From Minisyncoccia bacterium (lineage in GTDB: Bacteria > Patescibacteriota > Minisyncoccia > Phycocordibacterales > UBA9973), in assembly GCA_049287045.1 (NCBI GenBank), contig JBAQFC010000008.1:22198-86197 (forward strand): a DNA stretch of 64,000 nt, in the 5' to 3' direction. The notes beneath the pieces are model-generated. The model did no database searches. It was not told the DNA's origin and saw only the letters and a program-made list of their open reading frames with translations. Within the stretch, counting starts at the first letter, position 1; every line of letters starts with the position of its first letter. Of this stretch, positions 384-58,862 are shown in pieces. The position numbers and the translations under genes were made by a program.

Positions 384-827
384 TTATTTTCTTTGATATC
401 TCCCCATTAATTCTGATTCAGCTAAAATGTGATTTTGCATAGCCTTGATCAATTCTTTTGAACCGGCAGTTTTTGGTAAATCTAAAACTGTATCTAAAAC
501 ATAAAGCTTGAAAAAATATCGATGAGAATTATTTGGTGGACATGGACCACTGTATTCATTTTTCGGCCAACTATTCTCCCCTTGCACTGCTCCAACTGGT
601 ACACTGTTTTCTTTTATTTCTGTAGTATCGGGTGAAATATTCCACATCACCCAATGGTCCCAAGTCACACCTCTCGAGGCATCTGGATCATCCATTATCA
701 AAGCCAAACTCTTGGCTTCTTTTGGAACATCATTGATAATAAGTGCAGGATTTGTATTCTCGCCATCACAAGTATATTGTGCTGGGATTTCCTTTCCATT
801 TTCAAATGCTAAGCTTTGAATATTCAT
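384..827 (-). CDS. YbhB/YbcL family PEBP (Raf-kinase-inhibitor-like) protein
   Basis: Motifs DDPDA...WDHWV, GxNSW, HRYFFKLYVLD are diagnostic of bacterial PEBP. Confidence 0.8.
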   Translation of the reverse strand: MNIQSLAFENGKEIPAQYTCDGENTNPALIINDVPKEAKSLALIMDDPDASRGVTWDHWVMWNISPDTTEIKENSVPVGAVQGENSWPKNEYSGPCPPNNSHRYFFKLYVLDTVLDLPKTAGSKELIKAMQNHILAESELMGRYQRK

Positions 828-13624: not shown

Positions 13625-14278
13625 CTAAATTCCCTCTTTTTTCAACTCTTCTAGAAGCTCACGGGCTTTCTTGGAAATCTTACTTGGTATTTTTATTGTA
13701 ATAAGAATATACAAATCTCCGGGTTTTCCATTTTTTATTTGCTCTCCACCACCAGTCATTTTTATGGTCTGACCACTCTGAATTCCAGCTGGAATTTTTA
13801 TTACAATATCGTCATGTCCACTAATGGATATTTTTTTATCTGAACCTAAAATAGAATCAACAAGAGAAATAGATAATTCAGTCTTCATATCTCTTCCACG
13901 TGGAGTTCTCTGAGTACGAAAACCACCACCAAAAAATTCACCAAAAATATCATTTAAATCAAAATCTGCACTTCCTCCATTTTGGAAACCAGAAAAATCG
14001 AAACCTTCAAACCCTCCACCGAAACCACCTTGCTGGTATCCACCTTGTCCTCCACCACCTTGCATATTTTCAAAACCGGGACCATATTGATCGTATTTTG
14101 AACGCTTGGAATCATCAGAAAGAGTCTGGTAAGCTTCATTTACCTCCTTGAATTTAGCTTCATCGCCCTCTTTTTTATCAGGATGATATTTGTGAGCCAA
14201 CTTATGAAAAGCTTTTTTGATCTCTTCTTTTGACGCGCCTTTTTCTACCCCTAAAGTTTTGTAATAATCTTTTTTCAT
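13625..14278 (-). CDS. DnaJ-like J-domain chaperone (J + G/F + one CTD; no zinc finger)
   Basis: DYYKTLGV...HKYHPDKK J domain with HPD, a G/F-rich linker, and a DnaJ C-terminal beta domain. Confidence 0.7.
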
Positions 14279-14335: not shown

Positions 14336-15322
14336 TTAATTATTCTTTGAAATAAGATTCAAAATTAGTTTAACAATCTTGTCTTTATGATTTGGATCAC
14401 TTTCCGCAACAAGAACTGTAAGCGCTGTTAAGGCTGAAGGGCTTAATTTTTGTATATCGAGTATATTCGCCTGCTTCAATAACCAAACAAAAGCAAAAGC
14501 TCCTGAACGCTTATTACCATCAGTAAATGGATGGTTCTTTACCATAAAATACAAAAGATGTGCAGCCTTTTCTTCAACTGTTGGATAAAGTTCATTGCCT
14601 CCGAATGACTGCATTACATTACCAACTATTCCCGACACAGAACCAACATTTCTTTCGTGACCAAAAATATCTGTCGCTTCACCTTTTTCAATAAGAATTT
14701 TTCTAAGCTCGGATAAATCTCGTGAAATTTTTTCGGAGGTGATGTTAACTTTCTTTTTTGTAAGCTTTCCTTTCGATAAAATTTCTCGATCATAAGCATC
14801 CAAAGAAAGCCAAGTATCAGCAAAAAGTGATATAAGTTCTATAGCATCTTTTGGATTAACCGCAGATTCAGCTGGCAAAAGTTTTTTAATATCATCAACA
14901 ACATTTAAAAAATGTTCATAATTTTTAGCAATTCGGTTTTTATTTATTGCAAAACCATCTACGATATAGCTTCGTAACGTTTTTGTTGCCCACTGACGAA
15001 ATTCAATAGCCTTCTTTGAACTTGTTCTATATCCAACAGCTAAAATAACATCAAGATTATAAAATTGTACCTGATACACCTTTCCATCATCTGCAGTATG
15101 TGCAAATTTTGCACATACTGAACTAGCATTAAGTTCTTTATCATTAAGAATATTTCTTATATGCTTAGTCACAACAGATCTTTCAGTCTGAAAAACATCA
15201 GCAATCTGCGCCTGAGTAGCCCACACAGTTTCACGAGAAAAATCACCACGAAGTTCAATAGCTCCATTTTTAGCTTGGTAAATAACTACATCTTTCTTTT
15301 TTAGTGTCTTTTTTAATACCAT
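14336..15322 (-). CDS. RhuM-family N-terminal domain fused to Doc/Fic toxin-like domain
   Basis: N-terminus KNGAIELRGDFSRETVWATQAQIADVFQTERSVVTKHIRNI...FYNLDVILAVGYR matches the RhuM (SPI-3) virulence family. C-terminus HPFTDGNKRSGAFAFVWLL is the Fic/Doc HxFx(D/E)GNKR motif. Confidence 0.7.
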   Translation of the reverse strand: MVLKKTLKKKDVVIYQAKNGAIELRGDFSRETVWATQAQIADVFQTERSVVTKHIRNILNDKELNASSVCAKFAHTADDGKVYQVQFYNLDVILAVGYRTSSKKAIEFRQWATKTLRSYIVDGFAINKNRIAKNYEHFLNVVDDIKKLLPAESAVNPKDAIELISLFADTWLSLDAYDREILSKGKLTKKKVNITSEKISRDLSELRKILIEKGEATDIFGHERNVGSVSGIVGNVMQSFGGNELYPTVEEKAAHLLYFMVKNHPFTDGNKRSGAFAFVWLLKQANILDIQKLSPSALTALTVLVAESDPNHKDKIVKLILNLISKNN

Positions 15323-15416: not shown

Positions 15417-17512
15417 CTATTCTAAAATCTTCTTTAACACATCTTCAGGCACTTCTTTTATATTTTTTGGAGGTGTTGGGACTGGAATTTCTTTTTTTAC
15501 TTCCTCATTCACCGGCTCAACTTTTTTTTCTTGTGATGCTGCTGGTACTTTTTCAAAAATAAAATTTTTAAGTTTATTCATATCTTCTGCACTTGCAGAT
15601 CTATCATTATTTATAGAGGTTGCTGATACAGGATTTGATCTTTTTAAATCACTCAATGACATTGCAGGAGGTGGTACGGGAATTTTAATTTCTTTTACTT
15701 CTGGTACTACAACCGGTTTCTCTAAAACTTTATTCTCAGACAGAGTCTTATTTAAAATATCTCTCAAAGCTGTATTTTCAATAGGCTTTACTGACATCGG
15801 TATAGAACGAACAAATGGCTTTGGAATTTCTTTTTGAACTGGAGGTTCTGAAGCAATAGGAACTTTAGGAAAAATTTTTGGTTCCACAGAACCATGTCGT
15901 GCAATGTCCACTGGACGACTAGAAATAATCGGTATAATAGGCTTCAAAACTTTTGTAAGTGTTGAAAGAATTCCTGGTTTAACAGGCTCCTCAACTTTTT
16001 TAACCTCAGGTTCTTTAACAGGAGCTGGTTGTGGAACAGGTTTTATCTCTCCGGATTTAATTTTAGCTATACAATCCTTACAATATATAGGTCTTCCTGG
16101 TTCAGGTTTAAACGGCACCGATGTTTCCTTTTTACAATTAGAACAAACAGCTGGGAATTTTTCTACATTACTGATAGGACTGGTACTGACAATATTGCCA
16201 ATAGACATACCACTCCAATCATTTATTTCTTGTTCAACAACTTCTTTGGATTTACAGTAAAGAGCACGAGACATACTAATAACTTTATCTTCTACTTGTG
16301 TATCTGGATTTTTCGCTATTGGAGGCAACGTCTTCGCAGAAAAAGGTCGTGAACCGATACCATCAATCATCAGACGAAGATAAATACGGTAGTTCGGTAA
16401 ATTCACAATATCTTGTGGAGTAAATTCTGGTTCAAATTCTTTTTCTAGGAATAATGCATCATCAGCACCCACTCGGAATACAATCATCGTACCAACGTTA
16501 CCGAAGACAGCATCACGCACAGCGGAAGACCCATCAATAACAAGCTGAGCAGTATACTGGTGTGCAACGGTTAGATTCAATCGATACTTTCGAGCTTCAG
16601 ACAAAATACTAGCAAAAGAATCGGTCACGAAGTTTTGGAACTCGTCGACATATAAATAAAAGTCTTTTCTTTCATCTTCTGGAATACGCACGCGCTCCAT
16701 CGCAGCGAGCTGGATCTTGGTAATAATCATACCTCCAAGCAATGCGGAATTATCTTCACCAATACGTCCCTTGGAAACGTTCACCAAGAAAATTTTACCT
16801 TCATTCATGATATCAAAAACATTGATGGTACTCATTGATTGACCTACAACATTTCTAATGATGGAAGAAGAAAGAAATTGTCCGACTTTGTTTTGAATCG
16901 GAGCAATAGCTTCATTTCTAAATTTTTCATTCCAAGCTTCATACTCGTGAATCCAAAAAGCTTTGATGACCGGGTCTTTCAAATTTTCAATTATTTTTTT
17001 ACGGTACTCTTTGTCCACCAACATTCTAGGAATACCAAGAAGAGTCGAACCCGGAGTATCGAGCAATGCAAGAATTGTATTATTCAAAATATATTCCATA
17101 CGAGCAGACCAAGCATTCGCCCAGATCTTGGTGAAAATTCCCATCAAACCTGAAGCAACCAAATGTTTATATTTTGGATCTAGAATTTCAATAACATTAA
17201 AGCCGATATGATAATCCGTATCGGCTGGGTTGAAATAAATAACATCTTTGATACGGTCAGTTGGAATAGATTGTAAAACACTTTCAACTAATTCTCCGTG
17301 CGGATCAACAACACAAACACCATCACCGTTTTGTATATTCTGAACAATCATATTGGAAAGAAGCACGGATTTACCGGTACCTGATTTTCCGAGAACATAT
17401 ACGTGCTGGCGTCTGTCTCTGCGCTTCATACCAAAAATCTGATTCTTATCTCGAAAGGTTGTCTGACCTATATATGTCATATCTTTATTGATTGGTATTT
17501 TAGGATTCTCCA
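15417..17512 (-). CDS. type IV secretion coupling-protein-like (TraG/TraD/VirD4 family) ATPase with C-terminal zinc ribbon and Pro/Lys/Glu-rich tail
   Basis: Walker A VLGKSGTGKS, VVDPHGEL, Walker B YVDEFQNF and a TVAHQY...QL region resemble TrwB/TraG-type NTP-binding domains. Then CSNCKK...CKDC, followed by ~230 aa of PxxPxK low-complexity. Start at the internal MENPKIP (ATG 17510-17512). Confidence 0.5.
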
Positions 17513-17562
17513 TAAATTGAATTATAGCAAAAATTAAAAATAGGTGAAAGTAAAAATCCCCT

Positions 17563-17596
17563 CCAACCAAAGTCGGAGAGGATTTTTACTTTCTGC
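17563..17596. terminator. Rho-independent terminator downstream of dnaK
   Basis: aaaatcccctcc...ggagaggattttt stem-loop followed by a T-run on the minus strand. Confidence 0.5.
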
Positions 17597-17623
17597 GGAA
17601 GACTGTCCTTCGCAATATTTATA

Positions 17624-19540
17624 TTATTTTGCAGCTTCGTCAGCGGCTGGAGTTTCACCCTCCTTAGAATCAGCTTCATGAGTAGTAGCTTCTTCTTTTG
17701 GCTCTACTGGTGGTGCACCGGCATCATCTACTTTAGAAGATGCTTTTGCCATCTCTTCACCGATCTTGGACATCTCGCTAGAAAGTTCTTCAGTAGATTT
17801 TTTAATTGCATCCAAATCTGAACCTTCTTTCACTCCACGCAATGCTGTTATTTTTTCTTCAACACCTTTCTTTGTATCTTCAGAGATTTTTCCTTCATTA
17901 TCTTTCAATGCTTTTTCTGCTGTAAAGATAGTCATGTCGGCTGTGTTTTTTGCATCAGCGACTTCTTTTTTCTTTTTATCTTCATCAGCATGAAGCTCTG
18001 CGTCTTCTTGCATTTTTTTAATATCTTCAGGTTTCAATCCAGAACTAGCTTCAATTCTGATAGTCTGAGTTTTACCACTAGTTTTTTCTTTCGCAGTAAC
18101 ATTTAAGATTCCATTGGCATCAACATCGAAAGTCACTTCAACTTGTGGCATACCACGAGGAGCTGGAGGAACACCGTCCAAGATAAATCTTCCTAGAGAT
18201 TTGTTATCAGAAGCCATTGGACGCTCTCCTTGCACGATATGAATTTCGACAGAAGTCTGATTGTCAGCTGCAGTTGAAAATGTTTGTGATTTTGAAGAAG
18301 GGATAGTTGTATTTCTTTCTACAAGTTTTGTCGCAACTCCTCCAAGTGTTTCGATACCCAAGGAAAGAGGAATAACATCAAGCAAAAGAACATCACGTAC
18401 ATCACCTTGCAATACTCCAGCTTGGACAGCAGCACCGAGAGCTACCACTTCATCAGGATTGATTGTAAGGTTTGGAGTTTTACCGAATAATTTCTTTATT
18501 TCTTCGACAATTTTTGGCATTCTGGTCTGTCCTCCGACCATTATGATTTCATTTATTTCTTCGATTTTAAATCCAGATGCTGCAACTGCACGCTTTGCAA
18601 TATCTATCGAACGAGTAATATATTCATCAGCAATAGATTCCAATTGAGCACGAGTCATTTTCAACAACAAGTGTTGAGGACCAGCTGCGGTGGAAGTTAT
18701 GAAAGGAATATTTATTTCAGTTTCAATAGCTGTTGAGAGTTCGATTTTTGCTTTTTCTGCAGCTTCATCAAGACGCTGCAATGCCAATGCATCAGTTCGT
18801 ACATCTACACCGGAAGTCTTTTTAAATTCATCAGCAATCCAATTTATAATTTTATGATCAATATCGCGTCCACCAAGGTGACTATCACCATCAGTAGATT
18901 TTACTTCAATAACATCATCACCAACTTCAAGAACAGAAATGTCAGTTGTTCCGCCTCCGAAATCGTAGACTACAATCTTTTCATTTTTCTTTGAGTTCAA
19001 ACCATAAGCCAATGCTGCAGCTGTCGGTTCATTGATAATTCTTTTTACAGTCAGGCCAGCAATTTTACCCGCATCAATAGTTGCTTGTCTTTGTGTGTCA
19101 TTAAAATATGCAGGTACAGTAATAATCGCTTCAGTGATCTTCTCACCGATCTTTGCTTCCACGTCTGTTTTTATTTTTGACAAAATCATCGCAGAAATTT
19201 CTTCTGGACGCATCCACTTGTCTCCGATTTTTACTTCAACTCCACCATTTGCGCCTTTCTGAATTTTGAAAGAAGCATTCTTTAAATCTTTCTGCACTTC
19301 CGGATCTTCAAAATTGTGACCCATAAAACGCTTGATACCATAGATGGTATTTTCAGGATTTGTAACTGCTTGTCTTTTTGCTAAAAGACCGACAAGTCTG
19401 TCTCCATTTTTTGCAACAGAAACTACCGAAGGAGTCGTACGAGCACCTTCAATATTTTCTATTATTTTTGGCGCACCACCTTCGATGATAGCGACCGCTG
19501 AGTTTGTTGTACCTAAGTCTATTCCTATTATTTTTGCCAT
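17624..19540 (-). CDS. dnaK: molecular chaperone DnaK (Hsp70)
   Basis: [18 protein letters not shown], full 638-aa Hsp70 with an acidic C-terminal tail. Confidence 0.95.
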
Positions 19541-19645
19541 AATTTTATTTTATTAAGTTTATAAGGTAAATTAAAATTAATTTTTTTAGAAAGTCTTGCA
19601 CAGGAGCTTAGAAAATAAAAATGGTATTCCATTTATTATTTTCTT

Positions 19646-19680
19646 GAGCGACGAGCAGTTCGCTGGCGAAGCTTCGCCAG
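19646..19680. promoter_or_regulatory. GC-rich tandem palindromes in the dnaK/paaX divergent intergenic region
   Basis: agcga-cgagcagt-tcgct, overlapped by the 18-nt perfect palindrome ctggcgaagcttcgccag. Further imperfect inverted repeats (tagcaagc...gcttgtca, ttgtcaaaagacaa) lie at 19747-19789. Confidence 0.3.
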
Positions 19681-19803
19681 ATAGATTGCTTTATAAAAAA
19701 AATTAATTTTAATGAACATAGACAATTATACACACCATATTATTTTTAGCAAGCTTTTCGTGGTCGCGGAATGCTTGTCAAAAGACAATATATAGGATAA
19801 TAT

Positions 19804-20343
19804 ATGAATATGTCAACTAAACCCGACTATTCCAAGAAAATACTTAAGATTTTAGGCGAAAAAACAGCTATTTCCCTGCCTGATTTAACTAATCAAGTAA
19901 ATAGTAAAGACTGCTCTCAAAGCTCCGTATACGCCATCACACGCTCATTAAAAGGGCTTCGTGAAGCTGGTCTGATAGAAAATATTTCCTCCGGGCAAAA
20001 TGATTATGCTCGCCTAACAAAAGAGGGCAAAAAGAAAATAAACAGCCTAAAGCTCGACAGTGACACCACCCTCGTTGATACTTCCTGGGACGGGTTTTGG
20101 AGAATTATTTTACTCGACTTACCAGAGACTAGAAAAAGCGAACGTGAATCTCTTCGTTATTTATTAAAAAAGGCTGGGTTCGTGTGTCTCAAAAATTCCG
20201 CATGGATCTCCCCTTACCCTTATGAACATCTTTTTGAAAACATCAAAAAAGATTTAGAGCTCACTACTGAGATGATGATAATAAAAACTCAATTCATCGA
20301 CGAAGAAACTAAAAAGTTTTTATTTGATACTTTCAAGAAATAA
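19804..20343 (+). CDS. PaaX-family transcriptional regulator (wHTH + Cas2-fold C-domain)
   Basis: C-terminal WDGFWRIILLDLPETRKSERESLRYLLKKAGFVCLKNSAWISPYP matches the PaaX_C signature (WDG.W.....IPE..R..R..LR..L...GF..L.NSVWISP). Confidence 0.6.
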   Translation: MNMSTKPDYSKKILKILGEKTAISLPDLTNQVNSKDCSQSSVYAITRSLKGLREAGLIENISSGQNDYARLTKEGKKKINSLKLDSDTTLVDTSWDGFWRIILLDLPETRKSERESLRYLLKKAGFVCLKNSAWISPYPYEHLFENIKKDLELTTEMMIIKTQFIDEETKKFLFDTFKK

Positions 20344-20370
20344 AAAATCTCACAGTGATGTGAGATTTTT
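20343..20370. terminator. bidirectional terminator between paaX-like and grpE
   Basis: aaaaatctcaca-gtga-tgtgagattttt perfect 12-bp stem with flanking A/T runs. Confidence 0.6.
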
Positions 20371-20374
20371 TATT

Positions 20375-20992
20375 TTATTCTTTATGTCCAAAAACTTTTA
20401 CTCGAGCAGCTCTTAGTACTTTGTCTTTTGTTTTGTATCCTTTTTGTAAAACCTGAGCAATAGTGTCATCTTTAGTTTGGTCAACAGTTTCTACAACCTC
20501 CACAGACTGATGAATTTCAGGATTAAATTTATCACCTACTTGCCCAATAGATTTTATACCGTATTCTTCAAAGATATTACTCATCTGAGAATAGATATAT
20601 TCCACACCAGTCCTCCATGTTGCATCTACTTTCTCCCAAGCTTCTTTGTTTGAGAAAGCCATATCGAAACTATCCATTACAGAAAGGAAATTTTCTAAAA
20701 TTCTTTCTTGAATAATATTTCTGAAATTTCTATTTCTTTCTTCTTCTTCCTTACGGTAATTCACAAAGTCCGCTCGCTCTTTCTGCCAGCCGGTTAGGTA
20801 TTCTTCCTTTTGAGCTTTGAGTTCTTTTATATCAGCCCTAAATTTCTTTAAAGTTTTCTTTAAATCTTCCTCACCGTCATCATTGAATTCAAACTCAACA
20901 ACTTCTGATTCTGGTTCTGTTGGTTCTTTAATTATTTCCCCGCCTGCATCGCTTTGCGAAGCATTGCGGGCAGGTTCATTTTCTTCACTCAT
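20375..20992 (-). CDS. grpE: nucleotide exchange factor GrpE
   Basis: Acidic N-terminus, coiled coil, and the C-terminal GrpE beta domain (FNPEIHQSVEVVET...AQVLQKGYK). Confidence 0.8.
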   Translation of the reverse strand: MSEENEPARNASQSDAGGEIIKEPTEPESEVVEFEFNDDGEEDLKKTLKKFRADIKELKAQKEEYLTGWQKERADFVNYRKEEEERNRNFRNIIQERILENFLSVMDSFDMAFSNKEAWEKVDATWRTGVEYIYSQMSNIFEEYGIKSIGQVGDKFNPEIHQSVEVVETVDQTKDDTIAQVLQKGYKTKDKVLRAARVKVFGHKE

Positions 20993-21023
20993 ATTTTTAT
21001 ATTAACATAAAAAATTTACAATA

Positions 21024-21050
21024 AAAAATCCCTCGTGAGAGGGATTTTTT
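21024..21050. terminator. bidirectional terminator between grpE and rpsI
   Basis: aatccctc-gtga-gagggatt with flanking A- and T-runs. Confidence 0.6.
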
Positions 21051-21054
21051 GAGA

Positions 21055-21465
21055 TTAACGTTTTGACCACTGTGGAGCTTTTCTGGCTTTCTTCAAACCG
21101 AATTTTCTTCTTTCTTTCGCTCTTGAATCACGCATTAGGTATCCTAATGATTTTAGTTTTCCACGAAGTTCTAAGTCAGAATCAACAAGGGCACGAGATA
21201 GACCGTGACGGACAGCCTCAGCTTGGCCATGAATTCCTCCACCGTTAACTCTTGCTTCAACAGCATACTTCATTCCAGGAGTAGCTTTGACCATAGGGTC
21301 TTGGATAAGACGTCTCTGGTCTGCAGTCTGGAAATATTCATTAGAGTCTTTCCCATTCACTACGAAACTTGATTTTGTAGCTTCAAAAATACGAACTCTG
21401 GCTGTGGAAGTTTTTCTTCTTCCTACTCCTTCAATATATATATCTTTTGTTAATGTTTTTGCCAT
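21055..21465 (-). CDS. rpsI: 30S ribosomal protein S9
   Basis: GGGIHGQAEAVRHGLSRAL and the C-terminal RDSRAKERRKFG...R. Confidence 0.9.
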   Translation of the reverse strand: MAKTLTKDIYIEGVGRRKTSTARVRIFEATKSSFVVNGKDSNEYFQTADQRRLIQDPMVKATPGMKYAVEARVNGGGIHGQAEAVRHGLSRALVDSDLELRGKLKSLGYLMRDSRAKERRKFGLKKARKAPQWSKR

Positions 21466-21470
21466 TTTAT

Positions 21471-21824
21471 TTAATCTTCGATAGTTAAGTGTTTCATCAT
21501 CTCTCTTCTTAGTTTATTTCCAGGAAGCATTTGGTAGGTCGCAAGTCTGATTAATTCTTTCAGTCCTTTTTTCTCAGCTGTCTCAGTACCTTTTGTGATA
21601 CGTAGACCGCCTGGATAACCGGAATACTTGGTGTGATAAATTTCAGCCAATTTCTTTGTAGTAATACGAAGCTTTGAGGCATTCGTGATATTTACAGGAA
21701 AACCAGAATAAACATTCCTCTCAAAGGTAGCTTTGGTCTTGCCCATTAAAGACATAGCTGCTTCTGATGCAACTCTGCCTAGTGTTCTTCCTGATGCGTC
21801 AATTGTTTTCATGTGTTTTTCCAT
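21471..21824 (-). CDS. rplM: 50S ribosomal protein L13 (short form)
   Basis: L13 N-terminus (KTIDASGRTLGRVAS) plus the conserved rpsI-rplM pairing. Confidence 0.8.
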   Translation of the reverse strand: MEKHMKTIDASGRTLGRVASEAAMSLMGKTKATFERNVYSGFPVNITNASKLRITTKKLAEIYHTKYSGYPGGLRITKGTETAEKKGLKELIRLATYQMLPGNKLRREMMKHLTIED

Positions 21825-54555: not shown

Positions 54556-55923
54556 CTAATTATACCACTTTTTTAGTTTGGTCAAAATTTGAGACAAAGC
54601 CTTTAGTGTGTAGTCAATATCTGCTTTAGTTGTCTGTCTGCCAAGAGAAAATCTGATTGATCCATCAATTTCTTTATTAACCAATAACTCCCCTAACTGT
54701 GCTTCACGGATAGCTTGTATTACATGAGAAGCCTTTTCATCACCTGATTTACAAGCACTTTTGACAGAGGCCATAATTCCATGAGCAGAAAGTTCGATTA
54801 CCAAAAGATCACTTGGAATTTTTGGAATCGTGATGTTTATATTGTTAGGTAGTCTGTTTTTTAGGTCACCATTTAAAATTACTTTCCCCGAAACCAGGTT
54901 TAGGGGAAAATCCCCTAAACCTGGTTTCTGGAAATGTGTAGTGTCAAGGCTTAACCTTGACATTTTTTTAATAAAATAATCACGAAGTTTAATTAAACGT
55001 TTTACTTCTTTGTCTTTTATTTGTTCAACAGTTTTTAAAGCTTTTGCTAGTCCGACAATCCCGACAATATTTTCTGTCCCTGGTCTTAATCCAAATTCTT
55101 GGTCACCACCAAATATAATATTAGTGATAGGTGTCATTCTTTTTATATACAAAACCCCAACACCACTAGGCCCATAAATTTTTGATCCATTAAATGAAAA
55201 CAAATCAACACCAAGTTTTTCAACATTGATTGATAAATAGTTTATTGCTTGTGTGGCGTCGGTATGAAAAACTGGAAAAATACCAAGGTCGGACCTTTCT
55301 AAATTCTTAAGGTCCGACCTTTTTGCAACTTTATTTTTTCGATAATGACGAATCTCTTTTGCAATTTCTCTTATTGGTTGAATCGTACCAATCTCATTAT
55401 TTGCGTACATTACAGAAACCAAAATCGTATTTGATTTTAATGCTTTTTTAATTTTCTCGGGATCTACTATTCCATTTTCTTCTACTGGCACATAAGTCAC
55501 TTCTATTTGTTTTGTTTTTTCTAAATGTTTACACACTTCCAGAACGGAAGCATGTTCTATATTCGTGGTGATTATATGAGGAATAATTTTTCGAGTATTT
55601 TTTGAAATGCCTTGCGCAGGCTGACGAGCCGAGCAGAGCAATTTGCCAGCAGGCAAATATGTGTGCATTTGAAAAAATGACTCGTAAAATTTATTAATCA
55701 CACCAAGTAGAGCCAAATTATTACTCTCTGTTGCACCAGAGGTAAAAACCACTTCATTAGAGTGTGCACCTAAAATCTTGGCAATTTCTTCTCTTACTTC
55801 ATTCAGTTGTTTTTTCGCTTTCACACCAAAATCGTGAATTGCTCCAGGATTAGCAGGATTAGCTGAAGCACCACTGGCATAATCCATATATATATTCTTT
55901 GATTTTTTGATTGATTTAACCAT
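54556..55923 (-). CDS. cysteine desulfurase (NifS/IscS family) carrying two in-frame repeat-element insertions
   Basis: PLP-lysine region FNGSKIYGPSGVGVLY and the active-site Cys loop SVKSACKSG. Two extra segments, encoded by the repeats at 55600-55677 and 54889-54929, interrupt otherwise IscS-like sequence. Confidence 0.8.
   Translation of the reverse strand: MVKSIKKSKNIYMDYASGASANPANPGAIHDFGVKAKKQLNEVREEIAKILGAHSNEVVFTSGATESNNLALLGVINKFYESFFQMHTYLPAGKLLCSARQPAQGISKNTRKIIPHIITTNIEHASVLEVCKHLEKTKQIEVTYVPVEENGIVDPEKIKKALKSNTILVSVMYANNEIGTIQPIREIAKEIRHYRKNKVAKRSDLKNLERSDLGIFPVFHTDATQAINYLSINVEKLGVDLFSFNGSKIYGPSGVGVLYIKRMTPITNIIFGGDQEFGLRPGTENIVGIVGLAKALKTVEQIKDKEVKRLIKLRDYFIKKMSRLSLDTTHFQKPGLGDFPLNLVSGKVILNGDLKNRLPNNINITIPKIPSDLLVIELSAHGIMASVKSACKSGDEKASHVIQAIREAQLGELLVNKEIDGSIRFSLGRQTTKADIDYTLKALSQILTKLKKWYN
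54889..54929. repeat. perfect 18-bp-stem hairpin element in frame inside the cysteine desulfurase gene
   Basis: gaaaccaggtttagggg-aaaa-tcccctaaacctggtttc encodes QKPGLGDFPLNLVSG; a second small hairpin, caagg-cttaa-ccttg, follows at 54945-54959. Confidence 0.55.
55600..55677. repeat. 75-nt structured repeat, copy A (in frame within the cysteine desulfurase gene)
   Basis: aaatgccttgcgcaggctgacgagccgagcagagcaa + 18-nt hairpin + atgtgtgcattt, bounded by the inverted ends tttgaaatgc/gcatttgaaa. 49 of ~75 nt are identical to copy B at 58720-58795. Confidence 0.6.
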
Positions 55924-58624: not shown

Positions 58625-58697
58625 GCACCCATAACTCAGCTGGTAGAGTAGCTCCCTCTTAAGGAGAATGTCGGAGGTTCGATCCCTCCTGGGTGCA
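58625..58697 (+). tRNA. tRNA-Lys (anticodon CTT)
   Basis: Acceptor GCACCCA/TGGGTGC, anticodon loop CTCTTAA, T arm GGAGG-TTCGATC-CCTCC. Confidence 0.7.
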
Positions 58698-58719
58698 CAC
58701 ACGAGAGAAAGAAAATGTT

Positions 58720-58795
58720 TTTAAAATGCCTTGCGCAGGCTGACGAGCCGAGCAGAGCAAAAATTCAGCAGAATTTTATGTGTGCATTTTAAAAA
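58720..58795. repeat. 75-nt structured repeat, copy B (intergenic, between tRNA-Lys and tRNA-Leu)
   Basis: Identical 37-nt and 12-nt blocks to copy A. The internal hairpin aaaattc-agca-gaatttt differs from copy A (atttgcc-agca-ggcaaat) by compensatory changes that keep a 7-bp stem and the AGCA loop. Perfect terminal inverted ends ttttaaaatgc/gcattttaaaa. Confidence 0.6.
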
Positions 58796-58862
58796 TTTTT
58801 TCTTACTCTCGTGTTTGATTTATTATCAAAAGAAAGCTATTCTATATAGTAATCGAAAAAAT

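Follow-up and report, generated by a model that had tools for sequence, protein, structure and literature searches.

A PaaX-like regulator and a conserved 30-bp palindrome as the probable replacement for HrcA and CIRCE at dnaK in a group of Patescibacteria

The DNA considered here is a 64-kb stretch of contig JBAQFC010000008.1 from a Minisyncoccia bacterium, hereafter the window. It is AT-rich (34.6% GC), and the closest matches to its proteins carry the names of Patescibacteria (Paceibacteria, 'Nomurabacteria'). On its minus strand lies dnaK (17624-19540), which encodes a protein of 638 aa (PF00012, E=3.5e-240; NF001413, 907 bits against a cut-off of 648), and, further upstream on the same strand, grpE (20375-20992; 205 aa; PF01025, E=1.9e-38). 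Between the two, on the plus strand, is the gene of a small regulator (19810-20343), which is the sole plus-strand open reading frame (ORF) among the 44 ORFs of at least 90 aa mapped at 384-44866. It is separated from dnaK by an intergenic region of 263 bp (19541-19803). A first-pass annotation, made from the sequence alone, had described a PaaX-like winged helix-turn-helix gene in this position on the opposite strand and a divergent region of about 260 bp. Both descriptions hold: the ORF (19804-20343) matches PF20803 with E=4e-20.

Within the intergenic region, close to the start of the regulator gene, is a 30-bp palindrome (19749-19778, both strands), GCAAGCTTTTCGTG-GT-CGCGGAATGCTTGT, which is the candidate operator. 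Its arms (19750-19762 and 19765-19777) have a 13-2-13 layout and are complementary at 10 of 13 positions; they are the imperfect inverted repeats that had been noticed near the paaX start at the outset. For comparison, 80 related genome loci (L001-L080) encoding regulator relatives of 65-94% identity were fetched, 75 of which include the DNA upstream of the regulator gene. In every one of these 75 the regulator gene is divergent from an adjoining dnaK, and the operator motif is common to all 75 intergenic regions, which span 81-2043 bp. The consensus is CAAGTATTTCGYG-RY-CRCGAAATACTTG, and that of the family is tgCAAGTATTTCGyGryCrCGAAATACTTGTc. A comparison of dnaK upstream regions among relatives, which the first-pass annotation had suggested, therefore did bring out a conserved palindrome, but it is the inverted repeat at 19749-19778 (75/75) and not the more conspicuous GC-rich palindromes of the same region, which are not conserved.

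The position of the operator is tied to the regulator. Its center is 39-49 nt from the assigned start codon of the regulator in 62 of the 75 loci, with a conserved ATGTCAA in fixed register at +46 from the center. (The start codon conserved in relatives is the second ATG, at 19810, which gives a protein of 177 aa; counted from 19804, the protein has 179 aa.) The distance to dnaK, on the other hand, varies from 41 to 1748 nt among the 75 loci. In at least seven loci (L016, L028, L050, L054, L068, L078, L079), at about 45-100 nt downstream of the operator, the ATGTCAA of the regulator is directly followed by a short GC-rich hairpin with a GTCAA direct repeat on its flanks (for example, ATGTCAACCCCGTCGCTCGTGAGCGACGGGGTCAAGC). 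This hairpin shifts the assigned start codon about 45-70 nt downstream and looks like a second type of small-hairpin insertion.

Outside such loci the operator is absent from about 1.5 Mb of DNA. Its weight matrix has exactly one site in 79 of the 80 genome loci, and no further site turned up in 705 kb. The window has a single site, of 44.5 bits, and nothing else in it reaches 8 bits, and in 768 kb of unrelated Patescibacteria contigs sites occur solely in two contigs with a dnaK/regulator pair, so that both metagenome loci with such a pair carry one site each (2/2). Altogether, the operator is conserved in 83 loci, at one site each. (Exact patterns in the code of the International Union of Pure and Applied Chemistry match just 16-38 of the 75 known sites.)

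What kind of protein is the regulator? Its middle domain, residues 93-170, is PaaX_M (PF20803; Cas2-like/dimerization), at 72.1 bits against a cut-off of 24. No Pfam match was obtained to PF07848, the N-terminal winged helix of PaaX, and the score against the PaaX equivalog TIGR02277, 35.8 bits, is below the cut-off of 264.55. Nor was there a match to the C-terminal domain of PaaX: the chain stops at residue 179, directly after the middle domain. An AlphaFold model (predicted local distance difference test score, 76) consists of a winged helix, with helices at 9-19, 25-32 and 39-54 and then a two-strand wing, followed by a beta-alpha-beta-beta-alpha-beta domain. The best fold match of this model is E. 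coli PaaX (8a39, E=2.4e-6), followed by the PaaX-like 3l09 and 3kfw; these targets are 234-305 aa long, and only their first two domains aligned with the regulator. (Only the fold search led to PaaX; when the PDB was searched by sequence, with the profile of the family, nothing significant emerged.) The regulator is predicted to be a dimeric winged-helix transcription factor. More than 2000 relatives were found, with many invariant positions among 26 aligned sequences, and a profile search of 1.84 billion representatives of 50% identity clusters returned 2965 clusters at E<=1e-3, 733 at E<=1e-10 and 20 at E<=1e-30. Most clusters of this family, here called mini-PaaX, are 175-200 aa long. One invariant helix of the regulator, SLRYLLKKAGF, has a hydrophobic core and a basic flank; speculatively, it resembles DnaK-binding peptides.

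The operator is closely interwoven with predicted promoters. Toward dnaK, promoter P2 (19816-19787, minus strand) has a -35 box TTGACA (19816-19811), an 18-nt spacer and a -10 box TATATT (19792-19787), with 11 of 12 matches, and in 66 of 74 loci it recurs in fixed register as TTGACA-18-TATACT/TATATT (11-12 of 12 matches). The conserved ATGTCAA start of the regulator supplies this -35 box as its reverse complement. Transcription from P2 is predicted to start near 19780, which puts the operator at about +3 to +32. A second promoter toward dnaK, P1 (19752-19725, minus strand; 10 of 12 matches), has a -35 box TTGCTA (19752-19747), a 16-nt spacer and a -10 box TATAAT (19730-19725). The -35 box of P1 is the outer end of the left arm of the operator (TTGCTA, TTGCAA or TTGTCA). 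In the 52 loci of the P1 class, TTG is invariant (52/52) and a TATAAT-like -10 box follows at 15-17 nt, at 16 or 17 nt in 48 of them; the TATAAT is perfect in 38. The regulator's own promoter (19775-19803, plus strand; 9 of 12 matches) has a -35 box TTGTCA (19775-19780) that overlaps the right arm of the operator (TTGTCA or TTGTAT in 58/75 loci), and its -10 box is either TAATAT (19798-19803) or GATAAT (19796-19801). With these boxes, the regulator mRNA is predicted to be leaderless or nearly so, starting at or beside the ATG at 19810. In four loci (L011, L069, L070, L075), and more weakly in L025 and L058, the P1 spacer holds a DnaA-box-like TGTGGATAA (reverse complement of TTATCCACA), a string that is not present in the window.

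How would such an arrangement work? Gene order, the conservation and specificity of the operator, the promoter geometry and the fold were all computed directly; we infer that this protein is the one bound at the site, that its effect is repression and not activation, and, most of all, which signal it responds to. The palindrome at 19749-19778 behaves as a protein-binding site, and its co-occurrence with the adjacent regulator suggests that this is the protein that binds it. A dimer of the regulator would bind the palindrome, and the bound dimer would block P2, P1 and the regulator's own promoter together, so that dnaK, the genes downstream of it and the synthesis of the regulator would all be shut off. 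P1 and P2 are near-consensus promoters of the sigma-70 type and are thus suited to repression, activators not being needed. It appears likely, on balance, that the regulator represses the dnaK operon, and its own gene as well, via 19749-19778, the GC-rich palindromes being an unrelated repeat; dnaK is presumably the gene under its control. Judged from the sequences, the PaaX-like protein and the 30-bp palindrome probably replace HrcA and CIRCE at dnaK in this group of Patescibacteria.

The absence of a C-terminal ligand domain makes it more likely that the signal is the state of the regulator itself (thermolability) or the titration of DnaK by unfolded proteins than a small molecule. The activity of the regulator would then follow either its own folding state or free DnaK. 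Both kinds of sensing have precedents: HrcA, CtsR and RheA respond to folding state, and HspR and sigma-32 respond to free DnaK.

PaaX is the phenylacetyl-CoA-responsive repressor of the paa catabolic operons in E. coli and Pseudomonas. It works in competition with RNA polymerase, acts on divergent promoters and also represses its own gene; its middle region is a dimerization motif, and its C-terminus binds the inducer phenylacetyl-CoA, which releases repression (PMC9493321). The likeness to the regulator lies in the PF20803 middle domain, which both proteins have, in the N-terminal winged helix, which the regulator shows in its model, and in the best fold match, as well as in promoter occlusion, divergent promoters and self-repression, which are known for PaaX and proposed for the regulator. 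However, the regulator has about 180 aa against about 310 aa for PaaX, and it lacks the inducer-binding C-terminal domain. Its predicted operator is a compact 13-2-13 palindrome, whereas that of PaaX is TGATTC-N27-GAATCA (PMC9493321), a box that was found neither in the window region nor in the 75 intergenic regions, and its neighbors are chaperone genes, not paa genes.

Several points weigh against the proposed repressor model. In 23 of the 75 loci the left arm of the operator is degenerate and there is no P1; no dnaK promoter can be defined to the left of the operator in these loci, a difficulty that disappears with P2, which lies on the right. At its outer ends the palindrome has invariant bases (C at -14, G at +13) that coincide with the TTG of two -35 boxes, and part of the symmetry could reflect back-to-back promoters, not protein contacts. 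L017, a 2.3-kb contig and the sole exception among the 80 loci, has the regulator gene without dnaK or operator. Other members of the mini-PaaX family adjoin unrelated genes, namely those for a tRNA synthetase and KsgA, an amidase, an aminotransferase and a peptidase M16. No second target of the operator was found, be it grpE in this clade or any other gene, groESL and clpB loci not having been sampled; and tblastn with GroEL and GroES sequences gave no match in 1.54 Mb, where about two GroEL matches were expected, so that this search is uninformative. A site centered about 46 nt upstream of the P1 and regulator starts could serve an activator. Finally, hrcA could lie elsewhere in the genome, of which 64 kb was examined.

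Of the alternatives, the one that survives best holds that the conserved palindrome is the autoregulatory site of the regulator only, dnaK being a mere conserved neighbor. Such a site would account for a distance that is fixed to the regulator start and not to dnaK, as well as for the family members that sit beside unrelated genes. It is nonetheless an unlikely explanation, since in 66 of 74 loci the near-consensus P2, directed at dnaK, would be read across the site, and since P1, the second promoter directed at dnaK, has the left arm as its -35 box. The genes inserted between operator and dnaK respect the orientation of dnaK, nearly all of these ORFs being co-directional with it, and in two loci, L061 and L031, the operator remains on the dnaK side though other genes part it from the regulator. 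Moreover, the partnership with the Hsp70 system, in the form of grpE or of grpE-dnaK-dnaJ, outlasts rearrangement in distant relatives. A 56%-identical relative (L105) retains the regulator-dnaK arrangement. The distant relative P0135 (L201) is divergent from grpE, with the same operator, in the form TTGCAAGTATTTCGCG-TA-CGCGGAATTGTTGCA, and a P1-type -10 box, and another, P0143 (L202), is divergent from grpE-PEBP-dnaK-dnaJ, with a diverged palindrome, AAGTTTTTCACA-CC-TATGAAATATGC, in its intergenic region that was identified by reading the sequence.

Could the regulator be an activator of dnaK instead? The center of the operator (19763/19764) is about 45-46 nt upstream of the predicted P1 and regulator starts, and class I/II activators use such positions. 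Activation is nevertheless improbable, given that promoters as close to consensus as P1 and P2 need no activator, that the operator is downstream of the P2 start, and that the characterized relative, PaaX, is a repressor (PMC9493321).

The palindrome is within the predicted P2 transcript and could fold, which raises the question of an RNA hairpin in the dnaK leader—an RNA thermometer, for example, or a stability element—for which the protein would be irrelevant. There is, however, no compensatory change in the palindrome. Its covariation as a helix, 0.116, is under the shuffle mean of 0.130, and 455 of 500 shuffles are at least as high; it pairs in 80% of cells, as column composition alone predicts, and several of its positions pair in under half of the sequences. 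In the true folded element next door, discussed below, 95% of cells pair and covariation is massive. Without covariation, the symmetry of the operator is better explained by two conserved half-sites, as for the site of a dimeric protein, than by a folded RNA. Nor could a hairpin that is 41-1748 nt from the dnaK start, far in most loci, mask the ribosome-binding site. An RNA element is thus a very unlikely explanation of the palindrome.

Another very doubtful explanation puts dnaK under a classical system (HrcA/CIRCE, HspR, CtsR or sigma-32) from another part of the genome, the local palindrome being incidental; what gives it room is the 64-kb limit of the visible DNA, noted above. The CIRCE operator is TTAGCACTC-N9-GAGTGCTAA. 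As the first-pass annotation had stated for the regions upstream of grpE and dnaK, there is no CIRCE in the window at up to 3 mismatches, and there is no exact match in the 80 related genome loci and none at up to 4 mismatches in the 1.54 Mb of DNA covered, including 83 dnaK upstream regions. The canonical hrcA slot upstream of grpE is taken by rpsI (21055-21465, minus strand). A Pfam scan of ten ORFs of the window (267-601 aa), among them every one of the eight unassigned ORFs with the length expected of HrcA (300-372 aa), gave no match to HrcA, and tblastn of the 1.54 Mb with an HrcA sequence, a weak probe, found none either. HAIR and CtsR boxes are absent from the window at 17000-21500, and among the 75 intergenic regions there is one chance-level match to each. 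Control of the chaperones by something other than HrcA, as originally suggested, is consistent with the absence of CIRCE, HAIR and CtsR boxes and with the link between regulator and Hsp70; the part of that suggestion that fails is the choice of the GC-rich palindromes as the control site of dnaK.

The proposed system can be set beside the classical ones. It resembles HrcA/CIRCE in that a dedicated repressor, as predicted for the regulator, acts at the Hsp70 operon through a long palindrome, which lies on a sigma-70-type promoter or directly downstream of one, and controls its own synthesis. In L202 the regulator gene is even immediately upstream of grpE, the slot that hrcA has in hrcA-grpE-dnaK-dnaJ. 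On the other hand, the protein families are unrelated, the operators differ in sequence and geometry, and the regulator is divergently transcribed rather than being the first gene of the operon; no groESL target was found for it, groESL loci not having been sampled. HspR, a repressor of the MerR type, acts on the dnaK operon of Actinobacteria and Helicobacter with DnaK as a co-repressor. Its own gene comes last in that operon, and its HAIR box is CTTGAGT-N7-ACTCAAG. Here, too, there would be an autoregulated repressor circuit centered on dnaK, and by analogy the DnaK-titration feedback of HspR may serve as a model for what the regulator senses. The difference is that HspR belongs to the MerR family and that its HAIR box is absent here.

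A literature search found nothing relevant on PaaX-like regulators of dnaK, or on hrcA in the Candidate Phyla Radiation. To our knowledge, the way in which genes are regulated in the Candidate Phyla Radiation has hardly been explored, and only a few of its members can be cultivated. The locus offers a concrete predicted regulator-operator pair for one of the most conserved stress genes of these organisms: a protein of 177 aa, a site of 30 bp and two predicted dnaK promoters. If the model is correct, HrcA, HspR and CtsR are joined by a further unrelated protein family, the fourth to be recruited as a repressor of the Hsp70 operon, and the scaffold of a ligand-controlled catabolic repressor, PaaX, has been pared down to a two-domain stress switch. 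A more tentative proposal, which is possible though not favored, is that a large clade of Patescibacteria (Paceibacteria, 'Nomurabacteria') swapped the classical repressors for a minimal PaaX-derived factor, reduced to a winged helix and a dimerization domain, which would sense proteotoxic stress by its own thermolability or by DnaK titration and gate dnaK through an undescribed operator. Independently of this, the GC-rich palindromes would belong to an undescribed, strand-specific repeat that forms a three-way junction as RNA or single-stranded DNA and has many copies across these tiny genomes.

The GC-rich palindromes at 19649-19680, which the first-pass annotation had considered as sites for PaaX-like control of dnaK, have a negligible chance of being the operator: a perfect 18-nt palindrome between the two genes is conspicuous and rare in the window, but these palindromes are part of a repeat that is present in 7 of the 75 orthologous intergenic regions, inverted in one of them (L025), that is downstream of the regulator gene in L037, that has two further copies in the window and is away from dnaK and the regulator in 123 of 125 listed metagenome copies, and whose stem sequence varies freely with compensation, as expected of a folded strand and not of a sequence-specific protein site. 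The perfect 18-nt palindrome itself, CTGGCGAAGCTTCGCCAG, is present as described, at 19663-19680; it is one of two in the window, against a mean of 0.5 per window in mononucleotide shuffles. The adjacent agcga...tcgct hairpin fares less well: the string is there (19649-19666), but the helix is absent from the structure that covariation supports. What had been overlooked is a perfect 18-nt inverted repeat (19570-19587/19696-19713) that brackets the GC-rich palindromes.

These parts belong to one structured repeat with three-way-junction architecture, 110-165 nt long in long and short forms, of which the window has at least three copies. Copy 1 (19562-19723, plus strand; 186 bits with a covariance model) consists of a closing stem (19570-19587/19696-19713), an AU-rich hairpin, also labeled P2 (about 19606-19650), and a GC-rich hairpin, P3, which is the palindrome at 19663-19680. 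This copy occupies part of the dnaK leader, downstream of promoter P1 and ahead of the dnaK ATG. Its plus strand folds far better than shuffles (z = -6.6), and the folded strand is antisense to dnaK. Copy 2 (55577-55701, plus strand; 56.2 bits, E=1.8e-8) belongs to a diverged subfamily with junctions GAGCAGAGCA and TATGTGTGCATTT. Copy 3 (58697-58818, plus strand; 53.8 bits, E=6e-8) lies between two tRNA genes and has a long closing stem of its own, CACACGAGAG...CTCTCGTGT. By BLAST and covariance model, the repeat is found at the orthologous intergenic region in six other genomes only (L002, L038, L068, L044, L054, L025). At these orthologous positions it occurs in either orientation at equal distance from the neighboring gene; in L025 it is inverted, and in L037 it is downstream of the regulator gene.

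The repeat is widely dispersed. A metagenome scan with a pattern for its core, AGTTCGCT-N12-18-AGAYAGATTGC, found at least 125 copies in at least 120 contigs (loci L081-L200). Among the 125 copies listed, two are near dnaK and 123 are near neither dnaK nor the regulator gene; 105 are intergenic, and the four arrangements of neighbor orientation (24, 20, 17 and 16 copies) reveal no preference. No transposase or other recurrent neighbor gene was found beside the listed copies. (One of these contigs, L099, which has tRNA genes, also carries a group I intron [RF00028, 57.7 bits; 521-743, minus strand] at a distance of about 80 nt from the repeat, a single case.)

The first alignment of the repeat had six copies, and the covariation test used 100 metagenome copies. 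In these 100 aligned copies 95.2% of cells pair, against 40-50% with the partners slid, and 44 of 54 pairs change on both sides. Covariation is 0.351 against 0.091 in shuffles, a value reached by 0 of 500 shuffles. The junctions UUGCGCAGG, GAGCAGUUCGCU and AGAUAGAUUGC are conserved, whereas the stems are variable with compensation. A U.G pair is kept in 92 of 96 sequences, which indicates that one strand is functional, namely the plus strand of the window, antisense to dnaK. A hammerhead reading of the 'CUGACGAG' in the repeat was rejected, as this stretch is a covarying 4-bp hairpin that is a long AU hairpin in other copies. Rfam 15 gave no match to the repeat in the window (gathering score) or in ten metagenome loci (E<=0.1), and a scan of the intergenic region at E<=1 matched neither operator nor repeat, the only matches being at chance level (E 0.18 and 0.34). 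A literature search on the conserved strings of the repeat found nothing relevant.

The structured repeat, then, is not a dnaK-specific control site and happens to sit in the dnaK leader here. It may be a mobile element, a small RNA or a signal in single-stranded DNA. Like REP/BIME, ERIC and Correia/MITE-like elements, it is short, multi-copy and intergenic, occurs in either orientation, has inverted-repeat ends and folds into a long stem. It differs from REP and MITE-like elements in its conserved junctions, compensating stems and conserved U.G pair, and in closing stems whose sequences differ between copies. Neither a target-site duplication (from reading the flanks) nor a transposase or recurrent neighbor gene was seen, again unlike those elements. 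With very strong covariation and no match in Rfam, it offers a lead of its own for the study of RNA or of mobile elements.

Which chaperone genes would the regulator control? The first-pass annotation had spoken of chaperone genes in general, but in the window this narrows to dnaK, since grpE has no site of its own in the weight-matrix scan, follows rpsI, which is immediately 5' of it, and is separated by a terminator. The latter is a bidirectional hairpin resembling an intrinsic terminator (20337-20376, both strands), with an 18-pair stem set between an A-run and a T-run, located between the convergent regulator gene and grpE; from its sequence, it is predicted to insulate grpE transcription from dnaK. 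In the related loci grpE is likewise downstream of the regulator gene, at variable distance, and nearly always after rpsI.

On the other side, 3' of dnaK and on the same strand, are genes for a TraD/VirD4-like ATPase (15417-17570), a Fic/RhuM protein (14336-15322) and, further along, a short DnaJ-like protein (13625-14278). The ATPase gene is possibly in one transcription unit with dnaK. Its product, a coupling ATPase resembling TraD, VirD4 and TrwB, carries a treble-clef zinc finger, CxxC-x17-CxxC, and TraD matches stand directly 3' of dnaK in most of L001-L080, an unexpected conserved partner.

Beyond the dnaK-linked regulator, mini-PaaX paralogues of 171-197 aa, with the winged helix and PF20803, are common in Patescibacteria contigs (L085, L088, L092, L201-L208), and their neighbors also include a cytidylate kinase gene. 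The mini-PaaX proteins appear to make up a broad family of small transcription factors in these genomes, within which a conserved subfamily is tied to the Hsp70 system. With at least 733 clusters (50% identity, E<=1e-10), the family may be a major family of transcription factors in reduced genomes.

Other GC-rich hairpins, unrelated to the structured repeat, are present in the dnaK leaders of L006, L019, L027 and L059, of L014 and L073, and of L024, L046 and L047; one example, CCCGATCCGATAATCGGGG, is just 5' of the dnaK start. It seems that the dnaK leader often takes up small structured insertions.

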